In this document: in pieces, positions 2,527 to 60,566 of the stretch
Numbering within the stretch: position 1 is the stretch's first letter
How the letters are laid out: the number at the start of each line of letters is the position of its first letter
Origin: a virus
Taxonomy: Duplodnaviria; Caudoviricetes
DNA: 64,000 nucleotides
Reading direction: 5' to 3' (one strand)
Virus record (IMG/VR): IMGVR_UViG_3300011577_000001
Program-made: the position numbers and the translations under genes
Notes under the pieces: generated by a model
Told to the model about the DNA's origin: nothing
What the model saw: the letters and a program-made list of their open reading frames with translations, nothing else
Databases searched by the model: none

Positions 2527-4491
2527 TTAGTAGGTAGCACCACCGAGACGGTAGCGGATTTCACCCAGGGAAGTGCGGGTAATGAACTCGCTGTTACGGT
2601 ACACCAGACGCAGTTCGCCCGACGAGGAAGCCAGGGTATCGAACGACAGGTCTTGTTCCTGAGCCAGAACGTAGTCGTCACCGACTTTGTCCACACGCAG
2701 GAAGCCTTTCGCCGACTTCTTGGCAGTCTCGCCTTCGGTGGCTGGCGCTTTGTACAGGTCGATGAGGGTATCGTCGATCTGGATCGCAGTGCCTTTGATA
2801 GCTTGGCCGAAGGTGTCACGGGTGATGTACTGGTAGGTGTAGCTACCGATGCCCAGGACCACGTTGCCGGAAGCGAACTTCTTCTTCGCCAGACGACGCA
2901 TGATCTCTTCGGTACGCTGTACGGTGATCGAGTCGCCGTAGATCAGGCCGATGTGTTCGTCCAGCAGACGGTAGCCTTCCGCAGTAGTGGTGCCACCGAA
3001 GGTATCCCACAGGCATTCCACGGCGCCTTTCTCTTCCGAGGTCAGCTCGTGTTCCTCGATCTTGTAGCCGCACTCGTAGTGACCGGTTGGGTCAGTTTCG
3101 AGTTGGATCTCCATCGACTTGAGGAAGCCGTAGATCATCGGCTTGGTCGGGTCATGGGCATCTTTCGCCAGACGTTCTTCGTTGACCTTACGGGAAGTGG
3201 CGGTCATCGCACGGAACGAAGCTACTACTTGTTCCCCGCCCTTCTCGAGGATCTCGGCGTCGAGTTCGGCCCAGGTACGGTTCGGGTTGCGGTGCAACGC
3301 GTCGGTAGCCTTGAGCAGGCGACCTTCGTGATCGCGGTAGTAGATGTGCTTCTGACGGGGCTTGAGACCCTTGCTACCGGAACCGACCATGAGCTGGTGA
3401 GCTTCGACTTCGGTGAAGATTTCAACACCGCAGATGATCTCAACCGGATCACCCGAGTCAGGACGGATCACCACCTTGGCCAGACCGAGGCTGTCTTTCG
3501 GACGTGACAGGATCACGTCTTTCAGTTCAGGAACGATCTTGGTCACCACACCCCAGAAGTCGAACGAGTCCGACACCAAGGCCACAGCACCGTTCGGGTA
3601 GACTTCGGTGATCAGACGCTTGAAGAAGCGCTTCTCGGCTTCCAGGCGCAGGACCTTGTAGCCTTCTTCGGTAACGCCTTCACCGGCAGCCTTGATCTTC
3701 TCCAGCTCGAAGTGCAGCTCGGACAGGATGTTGGCAGTCGCAACGGCGTGTTCGGTAGCCGGGATGGAGCAGGCCACGAACTCCTTCTCCACGTTCGCAC
3801 CGTAGTAGTCTTCGGCGTAGTCGATCGCAGGGATGGTGTCAGTACCGCAGAAGCTCAGCAGGTGACCGAACGAGCCACGAACGTCTTCAAGGCCGATACC
3901 ACGGAACGAGAAGTCGTGACCTTGAACGTCAACGAACTCTTTCGGAGTACCGGTCATCAGTGCCCAGTGTTTCAGCACGCGACGGTATTCGAAAGCGATG
4001 GTCGAGCAGGTGACGATTTTCCAGATCAACGCCGACATCGAAGTTTCGAGGTAGTTGGTGAACCAGTAGAAGTCGGGGTGGGTGTTGTAGATGGTGTACA
4101 ACGGCACGTTCATGTTGACACGCGCACCCTCCGGCAGGGCCAGTACTTCGATCGGCAGGTAGCCCAGGTCGTGTAGCTTCTCGAAACCGTCGACAGGAAC
4201 CTTGCCTTCACCGAGGTAGTAGTCCATGCGGCGCTTGTAGCGCTTGATGACTTCGTCTTTCGGCTTGGAGAAGAAGCTGCGGTTCCACAGTTCGGTCAGT
4301 TCTTGCAGCACCCCTTGCAGACCAGCCCAGACAACCTTGTGGTCCCAGAACTGCGACTTGGACACCGACTTCTGGAACAGACGGTCAGCACGCGCCGTCA
4401 GGTTACCGTAGGTGAAGTTGGCGCCTTTCGGGAACATTGGGCGATGGCCGACTTTGTAACCGTCGCAAACGTTGGGGGCAAACAATTCCAT
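2527..4491 (-). CDS. nadV: nicotinamide phosphoribosyltransferase family protein (NAMPT or NARP1 Namat-like)
   Basis: Motifs DGYKVGH, HDFSFRG, GTDTIPA, SIPATEH, VSDSFD, IRPDSGDP, LIYGDSIT, GIGSYTYQYITRDTFG.A.K, KKSAKG. Confidence 0.92.
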   Translation of the reverse strand: MELFAPNVCDGYKVGHRPMFPKGANFTYGNLTARADRLFQKSVSKSQFWDHKVVWAGLQGVLQELTELWNRSFFSKPKDEVIKRYKRRMDYYLGEGKVPVDGFEKLHDLGYLPIEVLALPEGARVNMNVPLYTIYNTHPDFYWFTNYLETSMSALIWKIVTCSTIAFEYRRVLKHWALMTGTPKEFVDVQGHDFSFRGIGLEDVRGSFGHLLSFCGTDTIPAIDYAEDYYGANVEKEFVACSIPATEHAVATANILSELHFELEKIKAAGEGVTEEGYKVLRLEAEKRFFKRLITEVYPNGAVALVSDSFDFWGVVTKIVPELKDVILSRPKDSLGLAKVVIRPDSGDPVEIICGVEIFTEVEAHQLMVGSGSKGLKPRQKHIYYRDHEGRLLKATDALHRNPNRTWAELDAEILEKGGEQVVASFRAMTATSRKVNEERLAKDAHDPTKPMIYGFLKSMEIQLETDPTGHYECGYKIEEHELTSEEKGAVECLWDTFGGTTTAEGYRLLDEHIGLIYGDSITVQRTEEIMRRLAKKKFASGNVVLGIGSYTYQYITRDTFGQAIKGTAIQIDDTLIDLYKAPATEGETAKKSAKGFLRVDKVGDDYVLAQEQDLSFDTLASSSGELRLVYRNSEFITRTSLGEIRYRLGGATY

Positions 4492-56741: not shown

Positions 56742-57596
56742 ATGACTATTGATGAACTTGAGGTCTACCTCGATCAGCGCATCTCACCCGAGGCGACCGA
56801 GTCACTGGTTGACTGTGCTCGCGTGATGTGCGAATCCGGTTTGGTCACTCACTTAGATGACATCGAAGACATCATTGCCGTTGAGGACGGTGTGGGTCGT
56901 GATGCTACCATGGCCAAAATCCGCAACTATTTGGAAGACGCACTCGAAGCTTGCGTCAACCAGTTCGGTGTTACCCTGCAACAAGGGATTGACATCAACC
57001 TGCGTCACTTAGTTGCTTTGCAACGCGGGATCAACCAGATCACCAACTTCGAGGACATCGAGACCATCGAAGCGTACTGTCTGTCCGAAGAAGATCCTGA
57101 ACAACGTCTGGCTGACATGTTGGAGTTGCTCACTGAATACACGTGGGCCGACTACTTACTGTTTGTACAAGAAGTCAGTCCATCACTGTTCAAGCGCATC
57201 CTTGAAGAGATCACCAAGCCGGACGAACTCGAAGAGATCGACAACTCGGACAACGCAATTCTGCTGCGCACCAAATCGTTACTGCTCAAGGTTGAGAAGC
57301 CTTGGCTGATCGATGAGATCGAAGACGGGGCTACGCTGGGTCTGCCTCTGGAAGCGCTGATCATTCGTTTCCGTGCTCGTTACGAAGCAGCACTTGCTCA
57401 AACTATGGATTGGAACCGTAAGCCTCAACTGTTGGCTGAACAGTACCTTCTGTATGTGCTCGCCTCGAACGTTCCAGACGACAAGTTGCTGGAAGCTGCA
57501 CAGACCCAGGCCGAAGACGTGATCCATCACATGCCAACCTTGTCGGCTGTGTTGCGTCATTGCCAACAACTCTTAAGTCAGGTGCCCACTAAATGA
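56742..57596 (+). CDS. hypothetical acidic protein coupled to the RNAP subunit gene
   Basis: AGGA RBS; ATGA overlap with 57593. Confidence 0.7.
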   Translation: MTIDELEVYLDQRISPEATESLVDCARVMCESGLVTHLDDIEDIIAVEDGVGRDATMAKIRNYLEDALEACVNQFGVTLQQGIDINLRHLVALQRGINQITNFEDIETIEAYCLSEEDPEQRLADMLELLTEYTWADYLLFVQEVSPSLFKRILEEITKPDELEEIDNSDNAILLRTKSLLLKVEKPWLIDEIEDGATLGLPLEALIIRFRARYEAALAQTMDWNRKPQLLAEQYLLYVLASNVPDDKLLEAAQTQAEDVIHHMPTLSAVLRHCQQLLSQVPTK

Positions 57597-58906
57597 AAGT
57601 CGCCGATTACTACTTGGCCGCCTTGAATGCTGGCGCCTATAAAAAGAAGATCTGGGTACTGAGTCTGTTCAGCCTTTTGGTTGACCCAAAGGAATATCGG
57701 TTCCCGTACGAGATCGTGAAGACCGACAAGAATGTGTTCTTCCGTAACCCTGATGACTTAGATGACCTCGTGTTACTGGACGACGCTCCGATTGATCGTC
57801 CGGTCCTGACCTTCAAGGACAAGCTCCAAATCACCCCTGATCGGGTTCCTAACCTGGCTGCGCCGATCACGACCACAGCGGGTAACTTGCTGTTTAACTT
57901 CTACGTCCTGATCTACTCGATGGGCAAGAAGATTCCATACTTGGAAGGGCGTCTGACGCCTAAGGGTGTGGAGGCGTTGATCCAGCCTCGTCTGACGTCG
58001 AACCCTGTGAACAATGGGGAGAACTACGACCCGAACGATCTGAACCCGATCTACGTTTCAGAGTACAAGAAGTTCAACCGTGCAATGTTTGCACTGATGG
58101 GCTTCACACAGCTCTGTGTGCCGTCTGCTACGCCTCGGACGATGTCGACTGACCCTCGTATCCCTGAGATCCGAAACAAGCTGGTAGAGAAGTACAAGGA
58201 CCGTCTGAACGACCCAGCCGTGATCTCGATGATCGATGCTGAGTTGATCAAGATCGACAAAGAGTGGATGAAGAACGACCCCGATGGCGGTGCTGGCTTC
58301 TACGTGAACGAGAACAAGTCTTACGACGTTGTGCGTAAGAAAGTGTTCCTGATGCACGGTGCAGAAGCAGGCTTCCAAGAAGGTACGGATGTTGACTTCA
58401 TCAAGAACTCCCTGAACGAAGGTTGGGAGATCGAGAAGCTACCGAGCATGGTGAACTCCTTGCGTGAGGGTTCGTATAACCGTGGTCGAGACACAGCACT
58501 CGGTGGTGAAGCGGTGAAGTTCCTGGGTCGTGTTTTCCAGAACACGGTGATTGCAGAGAAGGACTGTGGGTCTACTCTGGGCTGGGACAAGGAAGTTACC
58601 GAGGACAACTACAAGGATTATGCTGGCTTCTATGAGAACACCCCAAAGGGCCCTGTCCTCTTAGAAGAAGCTTACCTCAAGGGTAAGATCGGTAAAACTA
58701 TCAACATGAGAACACCCATGTTGTGTAGGACTCCGAAAACCGGCTTCTGCGAATGCTGTATGGGCGCAAAGAACGCCCTGAACCCAACCTCGCTGGGTTT
58801 GCTGGCGGCAGACGTAGGTTCCCAGATGATGGGCATTTTCATGGGTGCCATGCATGGCAAATCACTTAAGACTGCGCCCTATAACTTCAAGAAGATGATC
58901 TTTTAA
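57593..58906 (+). CDS. rpoC: virion RNA polymerase beta-prime subunit, middle fragment (phiKZ gp80-like)
   Basis: TTAGNLLFN, I.NSL.EG, bridge helix REGSYNRGRDTALGG, DCGS, RTPMLC..GFC..C.G zinc site, trigger-loop-like MGAMH. Confidence 0.85.
   Translation: MKVADYYLAALNAGAYKKKIWVLSLFSLLVDPKEYRFPYEIVKTDKNVFFRNPDDLDDLVLLDDAPIDRPVLTFKDKLQITPDRVPNLAAPITTTAGNLLFNFYVLIYSMGKKIPYLEGRLTPKGVEALIQPRLTSNPVNNGENYDPNDLNPIYVSEYKKFNRAMFALMGFTQLCVPSATPRTMSTDPRIPEIRNKLVEKYKDRLNDPAVISMIDAELIKIDKEWMKNDPDGGAGFYVNENKSYDVVRKKVFLMHGAEAGFQEGTDVDFIKNSLNEGWEIEKLPSMVNSLREGSYNRGRDTALGGEAVKFLGRVFQNTVIAEKDCGSTLGWDKEVTEDNYKDYAGFYENTPKGPVLLEEAYLKGKIGKTINMRTPMLCRTPKTGFCECCMGAKNALNPTSLGLLAADVGSQMMGIFMGAMHGKSLKTAPYNFKKMIF
58859..58906 (+). 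repeat. recoded copy of the RNAP gene 3' end (in use)
   Basis: KSLKTAPYNFKKMIF*; 34/48 nt identical to 59557-59604. Confidence 0.85.
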
Positions 58907-58946
58907 TTCCACGCATGCCTTATCATATAACACTTTGACGTGAGTT

Positions 58947-59558
58947 GTGATGATGGCTAGGAAGAATAAGGTGTGCGGGTTCTATAAGCTCCTGCACAAA
59001 CCTTCTGGTAAGTTTTACCTCGGTAGTAGTGCAGATGTTCTTGGACGACTGGCTCACCATAAGTGGGCGCTCAGGAAAGATCAGAATGCGTGTAGGAAGC
59101 TCCAAGAGGCTTTCAACACTCATCCCGACCTAGATCAACTGGATATCCTGATTCATCCCTGTAAGACTCGAGAAGAAGCTTACGACATGGAACAATCCTG
59201 GGTGGATCGTTTTTGGGATCATCCTGACTGCTTAAATAGTAGTCGAGATGTTCGTAGTCCAATCACAGAGCAGATGCACAAACCCGAGGTTAATGATAAG
59301 CGCAAACAGACTTGGGCTAAACGAGCTGAAAGCGAAGAGTTCCGTCAGGCTATGGGTAAGTACTCAGAATCTAGATGGAAGAGCCCAGGTGCCCGTGAAG
59401 CTTTCTCTGGTGCTAATAACCCGTTTGCCAAAGGCATCAAGATCGACGGGACCGAATATGGTTCTGTTAAAGATGCTGTCAGAGCCACGGGGGTTAGTGA
59501 AAAGACTATTCGCAAAAGGGCTAACCTAGAGTCGTTCCTTAACTACTCTTGGACTTAA
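58947..59558 (+). mobile_element. free-standing GIY-YIG homing endonuclease
   Basis: GFY....FYLGSS....R..HH, E..W, LN, NUMOD3-like SGANNPF, C-terminal IDG.EY.S..DA.RA.G helix-turn-helix. Confidence 0.88.
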
Positions 59559-59604
59559 GTCCTTGAAGACCGCCAAGTACGATTTCAAGAAGATGATTTT
59601 CTAA
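59557..59604 (+). pseudogene. displaced original 3' end of the RNAP beta-prime gene
   Basis: Reads KSLKTAKYDFKKMIF*; 13/15 aa identical to the functional C-terminus. Confidence 0.8.
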
Positions 59605-59651
59605 AGTCTATCTTCTGAAGCAGTTCATTCTCAATACGGAGACAGTCCCAA

Positions 59652-60566
59652 ATGGGCAAGCAAAACAACACCACCCAAACTCAAACTCAACAGCAGGGTG
59701 AACAGGATGTTCAGGACCAGGACAAGTTGGCTACTATTGGCGCTATCGACGACGCTGAGCAAGACAGCGAAGCCTCTGGCGATTCGAGCGGCGAACAGAG
59801 CGACGGCCAGGGCGGCACCGATTCCGAAGGCTCCGAGGGTGATGGGTCGTCCGATGCGGGCTCGGACGCAGAAGCGCTGGCAGCGCTCGAGGCGCTGACC
59901 GCTGCTGGTCTGGCTGGCGGTGAAACCGGTGCTGATCAAGGTGAAGGTGGTGATGAAGGCGAGGCCGCTGATGAAGACCCCATCAACGATGCTCCCGCTG
60001 TAGTCGACGCCCCGGCTCAAGGCGACCTGCCTTCCGTGGCTGACGCCCCGAACGATACCCCAGTGGCCATCCAACACGCACGTGCGCCGTCGGTGACCCT
60101 GACCCCAGTCGCTGTTACCAAAGAAGAGATCAAAGTGCAGCAGAACAACCTCACCCTGACCATCCTGGCCAACCAGCTCGCTGAATACGCCAAAACCATG
60201 CACCCGTCGCAGCCGATGACCGCTACCATCGGTAAGACCCAGCAGACCATCTTGTGGCGCACCATCGACGCCATCCTGAAGCTGGAAGGTGCCGAGTTCA
60301 TCAAGGGCTACACCATGCTGCTGGCCTTCGTGAACGAGAACCGCGACGGTGCTCTGAACGAGCGTTACATCTACCGTTACTTCGCGGATCTCACCATGCC
60401 GAACAACGACCGCAAGAACTTCAACCGCATCCTGAACCTGCTGTCGGCGACTGCTGATCCGGCCACCCGTCGTCTGGGTCTGGAACAAGCTGACCTGGCT
60501 GCTTCCCTGGCTGGCTTCCGCGACGGCGCCATCCAACAGCGTGTGACCGAGTTCTACTCGCTGTAA
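59652..60566 (+). CDS. virion head protein with acidic low-complexity N-terminus (gp79-like)
   Basis: D/E/G/S-rich propeptide-like region with ALE site; strong codon bias; synteny. Confidence 0.55.
   Translation: MGKQNNTTQTQTQQQGEQDVQDQDKLATIGAIDDAEQDSEASGDSSGEQSDGQGGTDSEGSEGDGSSDAGSDAEALAALEALTAAGLAGGETGADQGEGGDEGEAADEDPINDAPAVVDAPAQGDLPSVADAPNDTPVAIQHARAPSVTLTPVAVTKEEIKVQQNNLTLTILANQLAEYAKTMHPSQPMTATIGKTQQTILWRTIDAILKLEGAEFIKGYTMLLAFVNENRDGALNERYIYRYFADLTMPNNDRKNFNRILNLLSATADPATRRLGLEQADLAASLAGFRDGAIQQRVTEFYSL

Follow-up and report, generated by a model that had tools for sequence, protein, structure and literature searches.

Hybrid genes in which a mobile endonuclease has brought along a new gene end are known from fungal mitochondria as mORF gene hybrids, with examples in atp6 of Allomyces macrogynus and in atp6, atp9 (with a GIY-YIG enzyme), cox2 and nad3 of Glomus sp. 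(PMC3630166). Within them the nuclease open reading frame (ORF) lies between an inserted, in-frame C-terminus and the displaced native C-terminus, the native copy matches relatives that lack the ORF, and the two copies differ mostly synonymously (PMC3630166). Here we describe a locus with the same features in a 64,000-nucleotide stretch of viral DNA (IMG/VR record IMGVR_UViG_3300011577_000001; Duplodnaviria, Caudoviricetes), which as a whole is called the window below. Positions 58859-59556 very probably represent a mobile cassette, in which a spacer joins a replacement gene end to a homing endonuclease gene, and which sits in the 3′ end of the gp80-like RNA polymerase gene of a PhiKZ-like phage. 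As far as its sequence can tell, the locus would be a phage instance of a layout known from organelles, and the parallel with fungal mitochondrial homing endonucleases that an earlier note on this DNA had drawn is borne out by the arrangement of mORF hybrids (PMC3630166). The tail copies of Glomus atp6 are 63.5% identical in nucleotides (nt) and 91% in amino acids (aa) (PMC3630166), compared with 71% and 87% in the window. Unlike the fungal cases, the window involves a lytic jumbo phage with double-stranded DNA in place of an organelle, a duplication of no more than 15 codons, and a nuclease with an ORF of its own beyond a stop codon; within one phage clade there are several lineages of cassettes, three joints and two schemes of recoding.

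Several types of phage endonuclease share some of these properties. The Seg nucleases of T4 (SegB, SegF, and SegG) and I-TevI combine a GIY-YIG catalytic domain with a C-terminal DNA-binding domain of the I-TevI/NUMOD type; the enzyme in the window has the former and may have the latter. The Seg nucleases also resemble it in presence/absence polymorphism, in co-conversion of the flanks, and in the presumed protection of the donor by differences in the target (PMC2988022, PMC2330249). However, Seg genes are intergenic and neither duplicate nor replace a gene (PMC2988022, PMC2330249), whereas the cassette lies inside a coding region and supplies the missing end. Free-standing nuclease genes within essential coding regions, without an intron or intein, are known from gene-splitting phage endonucleases, such as mobE in nrdA of Aeh1, mobA in T4 gene 39/60, and a seg-like gene in gene 43 of phage 25 (PMC2988022). 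These leave two polypeptides that reassemble (PMC2988022), whereas the window keeps one complete polypeptide and the displaced piece is discarded.

A further comparison comes from PhiPA3 gp210, an intron-encoded HNH endonuclease that targets the virion RNA polymerase (vRNAP) gene gp178 of PhiKZ (PMC11620839). Both cases involve a nucleus-forming phage and a nuclease that is, or in the window appears to be, directed at codons for the catalytic site in an essential subunit of the virion RNA polymerase (RNAP) (PMC11620839). They differ in that gp210 is an HNH nickase, acts on the beta subunit gp178 and belongs to a self-splicing intron (PMC11620839), whereas the window combines a GIY-YIG enzyme, the beta-prime-like gp80 and a replacement tail. 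In engineered HomeR or cleave-and-rescue drives, too, an essential gene is cut and a recoded, cleavage-resistant rescue is linked to the nuclease (PMC7968924); the resemblance is functional only, as the cassette is natural, protein-guided and phage-borne. A limited literature search did not find the replacement-tail arrangement in phages. Within that search, phage reviews covered intron-borne, intergenic and gene-splitting endonucleases and not this arrangement, and the literature examined on nucleus-forming phages mentioned only the intron nuclease gp210.

Two copies of a polymerase gene end

The polymerase ORF (57593-58906, 437 aa; all features at the locus are on the plus strand) ends with 15 codons and a TAA at 58859-58906. 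After a gap of 40 nt the nuclease ORF follows at 58947-59558 (203 aa, ATG at 58950, TAA at 59556-59558), and the 15 codons with their TAA recur at 59557-59604, in a copy that shares two bases with the nuclease stop and lies in a frame different from those of both the polymerase and the nuclease. The next gene (59652-60566) begins 93 nt beyond the nuclease ORF. The two copies agree at 34/48 nt and 13/15 aa, just as the earlier note had described them, and the bias it had seen towards third codon positions is real, with 10 of the 14 differences falling there; 8 of the 12 variable synonymous codons differ. Its remark that the downstream copy uses the preferred C/G-ending codons also agrees with the G + C content at third positions (GC3), which is 0.87 for the downstream and 0.60 for the upstream copy, compared with 0.47 in the nuclease gene and 0.60-0.70 in neighbouring genes. 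The upstream copy contains rare codons, and the cassette has a G + C content of 0.46 against 0.52 in the body of the polymerase gene. A six-frame scan of the whole window gave no further match to the tail at 7/15 or more elsewhere, and the maximum in shuffled windows (n = 5) was 7/15. The locus is not an assembly artefact, because an independent Logan assembly (L074) is 100% identical to it over 871 nt.

The right-hand edge of the feature is more complex than the earlier note had it. Two copies were correctly recognized, but the end was set at 59604, overlooking a 14-nt insert (59593-59606) and a native gene end that takes the feature to 59618. The gene end is present in three versions: the cassette tail, the downstream copy and the native last three codons. 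The displaced native tail, a remnant in its own frame and without a start codon, provides the first 12 codons (59557-59592); it matches the tails of the relatives L001 and L002, and similar remnants occur in L008-L014. The insert, delimited by alignments and identical in L074, codes for Met-Ile-Phe-stop. It separates codon 12 of the remnant from the native last three codons and TGA stop of the polymerase gene (59607-59618), which are identical to the gene ends of L001, L002 and L003. The native intergenic spacer and the next gene (59619-60566), coding for a PhiKZ gp81-like virion protein (PHROG 18270 and synteny with PhiKZ), are near-identical to those of L001, L002 and L008 and would serve as a right homology arm.

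Relatives of the locus, cited here by L numbers, were drawn from IMG/VR, JGI, ENA, and Logan. They include 13 endonuclease-free (empty) alleles of the polymerase gene, with 76-96% protein identity. As the earlier note had expected of nuclease-free relatives, all 13 run straight into a single KYDF-type tail, with the next gene 23-86 nt further on, and the observation it had named as speaking against its proposal, both copies in an endonuclease-free relative, was made in 0/13. The downstream copy of the window matches the native tails of L001 and L002 at 32/36 and 31/36 positions, compared with 25/36 and 22/36 for the upstream copy. Furthermore, the DNA 3′ of the downstream copy is almost identical to the intergenic spacer of empty relatives, and the body of the polymerase gene differs from that of L001 by ∼11%. 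These comparisons indicate that the downstream copy is the native gene end and the upstream copy the incoming replacement. One endonuclease-free allele, L031, has a native TAPYNF tail but is in DNA no closer to the cassette tail. The same allele (4315-4400) and L037 (4315-4373) have unusually long, AT-rich spacers of 86 nt and 59 nt, which begin like cassette spacers (TACC.. and TAC..) and may be relics of lost cassettes.

Tail and nuclease as one mobile unit

The closest comparison is with L008, a near-isogenic locus that is ∼97-98% identical to the window across 8.5 kb. Identity drops to ∼45-70% from 58862 to ∼59500, with a sharp break three bases into the duplicated tail. Because the divergence is confined to this interval, the replacement tail (58859-58906, in frame with the gene) and the nuclease gene vary as one unit; alignments show the intervening spacer (58907-58946) to be akin to the spacers of other cassettes. 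A complementary pattern is found between L010 and L008, which share ∼700-800 nt of 100% identity within backbones only 60-90% alike. The identical tract takes in the entire nuclease gene together with the spacer, the tail and the last ∼60-160 nt of the polymerase gene, which is the pattern that recent homing with co-conversion leaves. The central claim of the earlier note, that of an element with its own replacement tail, gains support from both pairs, as tail and nuclease co-vary in the first and are transferred together in the second.

The allele table at the locus sets nine occupied alleles against 13 empty ones, and the nuclease is polymorphic at this one place with co-converted flanks. 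Nuclease homologues, ∼60% identical to that of the window, are found at exactly the same place in eight other loci (L007-L014). In L023 (411-1235) the site is taken by a different nuclease of 274 aa, whose two GIY-YIG modules are in tandem. The joint between cassette and remnant varies among these loci. In the window and in L008-L010 the remnant starts at Lys423, and in L011-L014 at Ala419; L023 retains only the last 8 native codons (1236-1264), a third kind of joint, and in L007 there is no remnant, the native intergenic spacer following directly after the nuclease stop. L008 and L009, found in two samples, have the joint of the window together with a +1 frameshift. Insertion just after the AMHG codons, as proposed in the earlier note, therefore describes the window genome but is not a general rule, given the three joints in relatives. 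An exact pair of occupied (L014) and empty (L021) alleles is ∼96% identical leftward and 100% identical from the remnant rightward, with the inserted DNA between the codons for G418 and A419. L013 and L014 are identical through the polymerase and nuclease genes, and their differences are limited to the remnant and to ∼250 nt at the start of the next gene (homologous to 59652-59900 of the window), which is a recombination patch to the right of the cassette.

A homologous nuclease gene occupies this locus in a model phage. PhiPA3 gp078 (NC_028999, L041, 66549-67742) codes for a 397-aa endonuclease, 34% identical to that of the window, with one clear GIY-YIG domain and, as judged by eye, two degenerate GIY-YIG-like modules upstream of it. 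It lies exactly between gp077 and gp079, the orthologues of PhiKZ gp80 and gp81, and has no tail remnant, whereas PhiKZ has no gene at this position. The literature examined on nucleus-forming phages does not mention gp078. At another polymerase locus, that of the non-virion RNAP gene gp55 of PhiKZ (L072, 47923-50205), gp56, annotated as an HNH endonuclease, follows after 15 nt.

The fate of the remnant bears on whether the downstream copy could still be used. Homing endonucleases of phage RNA polymerase genes are often intron-borne, as in PhiPA3 gp210, and the 15-codon frame of the downstream copy is open in the window genome, so a self-splicing intron or some other bypass might join codon 422 to the downstream copy in the mature mRNA or protein. 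We regard this as extremely improbable. Searched against Rfam, 58500-59900 contained no intron of either group I or II with an E value of up to 10, and gave only three chance-level matches; the non-coding flanks of the nuclease ORF measure just 40 nt and 93 nt; the upstream ORF is already of full family length at 437 aa; and the downstream copy is frameshifted in L008/L009, reduced to 8 codons in L023 and absent from L007. An intron is excluded on the combination of the negative Rfam scan, the tiny flanks and the dispensable remnant. The remnant is not only dispensable but decaying, because it is frameshifted, truncated to 8 codons, or, in L007 and PhiPA3, missing altogether. An intein was also considered and dropped, as the TAA at 58904-58906 and the 40-nt spacer precede the nuclease ORF, which is in another frame.

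A different reading would have nothing imported: faulty repair, triggered by an intergenic nuclease, duplicated the gene end locally, after which the upstream copy diverged where it stood under selection against self-cleavage. The plain intergenic arrangement without a remnant in L007 and PhiPA3 would suit such an origin. So would the endings of the tails, which tend to agree with the remnant of their own genome (MIF/MIF in the window, SIF/SIF in L008, AIF/AIF in L011-L014), and a private 17-nt patch in L012 that is common to both tail copies and shows gene conversion between them. Part of the similarity between tail and remnant therefore arose in place and not by import. Nor did the tail searches in IMG/VR find a donor for the cassette tail of the window: the back-translated PYNFKKMIF tail had no match, and FKKMIF-stop had 30, all AT-rich chance matches without an RNA polymerase context. 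Against a purely local origin, tail and nuclease differ together in genomes that are otherwise 97-98% identical and are jointly 100% identical in genomes that are otherwise 60-90% identical, and the two copies differ in 8 of 12 variable synonymous codons, compared with the ∼11% by which the gene body differs from L001. We consider local duplication quite unlikely; whatever its first origin, the tail now travels with the nuclease, because the two are identical together across diverged genomes.

The paired endings, the similarity that arose in place and the missing donor all weigh against the mobile-cassette reading, and two further points must be added to them. The first is that the Pfam GIY-YIG score of the window nuclease is barely above threshold. 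The second is the 14-nt insert, which is present in the window only, is absent from every relative, and is not accounted for by one homing event. It codes for the same Met-Ile-Phe-stop as the cassette tail with two synonymous differences, and IMG/VR searches found no lineage with a native MIF-stop end. Three origins can be envisaged for the insert: a leftover of the remnant that the donor itself carried, joined at an AAG microhomology in the wrong register; a leftover of an earlier cassette; or misaligned conversion between the two tail copies. Plain tandem duplication of the preceding 14 nt was dropped as an explanation, since the identity is 9/14 and an exact Met-Ile-Phe-stop would not be expected by chance.

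Target codons, recoding and the nuclease

The gene that receives the cassette is assigned by PHROG 2962, fold, and synteny, and in the window it is a hybrid whose last 15 codons come from the cassette. Its product matches PHROG 2962 over its full length (residues 1-436). That family and many GenBank records carry the name ‘RNA polymerase beta subunit’, a label we reject for the 437-aa protein, as its fold and motifs (bridge helix, first trigger helix) are beta-prime-like. In an AlphaFold model with a mean pLDDT of 82, residues 2-419 correspond to E. coli beta-prime 521-933 and residues 73-427 to Thermus 859-1247. Foldseek placed bacterial beta-prime chains on top, and VIA-align ranked chain D of the PhiKZ non-virion RNAP first (Z 11) and chain D of AR9 fourth (Z 10.1), its other top matches being bacterial beta-prime chains. 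The subunit type was set by fold search because a sequence search of the PDB gave one weak match only, to a beta-prime bridge helix (E 0.35). PHIKZ080 is the best PhiKZ match, and the order gp77-gp81 is syntenic. PhiKZ gp80 is part of the virion RNA polymerase. On the predicted fold and this synteny, the protein is a beta-prime-like subunit and the orthologue of gp80, and the earlier note was right to call the gene an RNA polymerase gene.

The locus has no megablast match among deposited phages, and the closest isolates share ∼40% protein identity. A homologue of chimallin, the nuclear shell protein gp54 of PhiKZ, is encoded in the same genome outside the window (G000:C1:194982-196697, minus strand; E 2e-35, 24% identity), so the term nucleus-forming phage is a reasonable one.

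Codons G418-G422 (58844-58858), with the probable trigger-loop Met-His-Gly, would, judging from the allele table, form the core of the target site and the co-conversion tract on its left. His421 in the AMHG motif is invariant in 51 homologues and, from the alignment ranges, falls within two or three residues of the position of the trigger-loop histidine (E. coli H936 in the established numbering). It is probably that histidine. A length of 15 aa after MHG is kept in nearly all of the 51 homologues, down to 35% identity, and is so widely conserved that the cassette tail would be needed for the protein.

The codons around this motif are spelled differently in occupied and empty alleles. The canonical sequence of codons 419-424, GCG ATG CAC GGT AAR TCN, is present in 10 of the 13 empty alleles, and recoding within G418-L425 is seen in 9/9 occupied alleles compared with 3/13 empty ones. 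The alleles are related and the figures accordingly rough, but the association gives a one-sided Fisher p of 4e-4, or 0.0045 after near-identical alleles are collapsed. Two schemes occur: five occupied alleles read GCC ATG CAT GGC AAA, followed by AGC or TCA, and four read GCA ATG CAC GGG, followed by AAA AGY (AAG TCC in L012). The window differs synonymously from endonuclease-free alleles within G418-G422 at 58849, 58855, and 58858. The recoding that the earlier note had attributed to the duplicated tail is therefore present but starts upstream of the duplication joint, with the AMHG codons included. Re-spelling of the same codons in two ways, including switches of serine codons from TCN to AGY, suggests selection for resistance to the nuclease, and the association with occupancy suggests that recoding destroys the cut site. 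Among the empty alleles, L029 and L033 are recoded and L037 is partly so, with tails that resemble cassette tails; such alleles would be expected if the nuclease had been lost or if only the tail had been converted. Substitutions to serine upstream of AMHG, in the first trigger helix (Gly414Ser, Phe416Ser or Gly418Ser), were noted among L031, L033, L036, and L007, and these variants at residues 414-418 may be nuclease-resistance substitutions at the cleavage site.

The geometry of the presumed cut can be compared with that of I-TevI, which cuts at a CNNNG motif. Such a motif lies at the codons for Phe416-Gly418 and is kept in all alleles, and the leftmost boundary of the remnants is 3 nt downstream of it. 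The densest recoding covers codons 419-428. The insertion site of I-TevI lies within the ∼20 bp that the enzyme binds, and its cut is made 23-25 nt upstream (PMC2988022). A cut near Met417/Gly418, with binding over the codons that follow, would fit these data.

The second ORF (58947-59558, intact, 202-203 aa) codes for a free-standing, I-TevI-like homing endonuclease of the GIY-YIG family, to which the earlier note had assigned it. Its score against Pfam PF01541 is 22.7 bits at a cutoff of 22.6, its match to PHROG 314 ‘homing endonuclease’ has an E of 3.7e-23, and 3855 relatives were found at E up to 0.001; a protein search in IMG/VR gave no match. The catalytic positions Y12, Y23, G25, R33, H37, E81, and N96 are invariant in an alignment of 9 homologues. 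Among the cassette nucleases, conservation is highest in the C-terminal third, the putative DNA-binding part (68-87%, and 77% between window and L008). In the window this part has only a weak NUMOD1 match (E 0.081), and the L008 homologue scores 29.3 bits (cutoff 27) against PF20987, the I-TevI DNA-binding domain. A second, distant GIY-YIG homologue is found in the same phage genome outside the window (G000:C1:856-1515, minus strand), in a frame of 265 aa that is 27-30% identical.

It might be asked whether the window nuclease is still active or mobile, or whether the duplication is a scar left by a fossil element. The marginal Pfam score could be read in this way, as could the isolation of its lineage, which is 57-62% identical overall to the other cassette nucleases and is met only in identical copies (L074), and recoded alleles without a nuclease (L029, L033) indicate that loss does happen. 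However, the ORF is intact with all catalytic positions conserved, transfer has been very recent in sister cassettes, and the nine occupied loci are free of nuclease frameshifts and truncations, all of which make a fossil unlikely.

With the mobile cassette as the preferred reading, a cycle of the following kind can be proposed. During co-infection the nuclease would cut empty alleles in the DNA for the invariant F-M-G-A-M-H-G-K-S stretch. Repair would be templated by the occupied genome, with the polymerase gene as the left homology arm and the displaced native tail plus the downstream gene as the right one. The copied segment would bring 15 codons and a stop, so that the 437-aa protein stays complete, and the recipient's own tail would end up downstream, untranslated and free to decay. 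Synonymous re-spelling of the target in the cassette's copy should make occupied genomes immune. In this scheme the position of cleavage, immunity by recoding and activity of the window copy are what we infer from sequence.

Meaning for nucleus-forming phages

The textbook routes by which mobile endonucleases enter an essential phage gene are introns, inteins, and splitting, and replacement of the gene end by a re-spelled copy would be a fourth. The earlier note had presented this arrangement as a third solution besides introns and inteins; it is indeed a separate solution, but gene splitting had been left out of the count. The natural series at the locus is unusually complete. Sites without a cassette are represented as well as three kinds of site with one; near-isogenic genomes show a swap of cassettes, and diverged genomes a cassette that is 100% identical; and there are decaying remnants and recoded alleles after loss of the nuclease.

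These alleles also raise the possibility, which we put forward tentatively and hold to be more doubtful than not, of an arms race among rival cassettes that home and rescue, in which variants of the nuclease also cut the re-spelled tails of other cassettes and PhiPA3 gp078 cuts the end of PhiKZ gp80. If this were true, cassettes would replace one another in near-identical phages, as between the window and L008, and the 14-nt Met-Ile-Phe-stop piece would be one of the nested relics that such replacements leave. In the virion RNAP, the codons of the trigger loop and of the tail would be driven to diversify, including the changes from Gly or Phe to Ser at residues 414-418.

An intron endonuclease directed against another RNAP subunit has been shown to decide the competition of co-infecting nucleus-forming phages (PMC11620839), and the nuclease of the window could, like gp210, act as a weapon against co-infecting relatives. 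PhiPA3 gp078, at the same locus in a model phage, makes the idea directly testable. As its relatives show, the cassette spreads among nucleus-forming phages, and its target would be the DNA for the probable trigger-loop histidine of their virion RNA polymerase.

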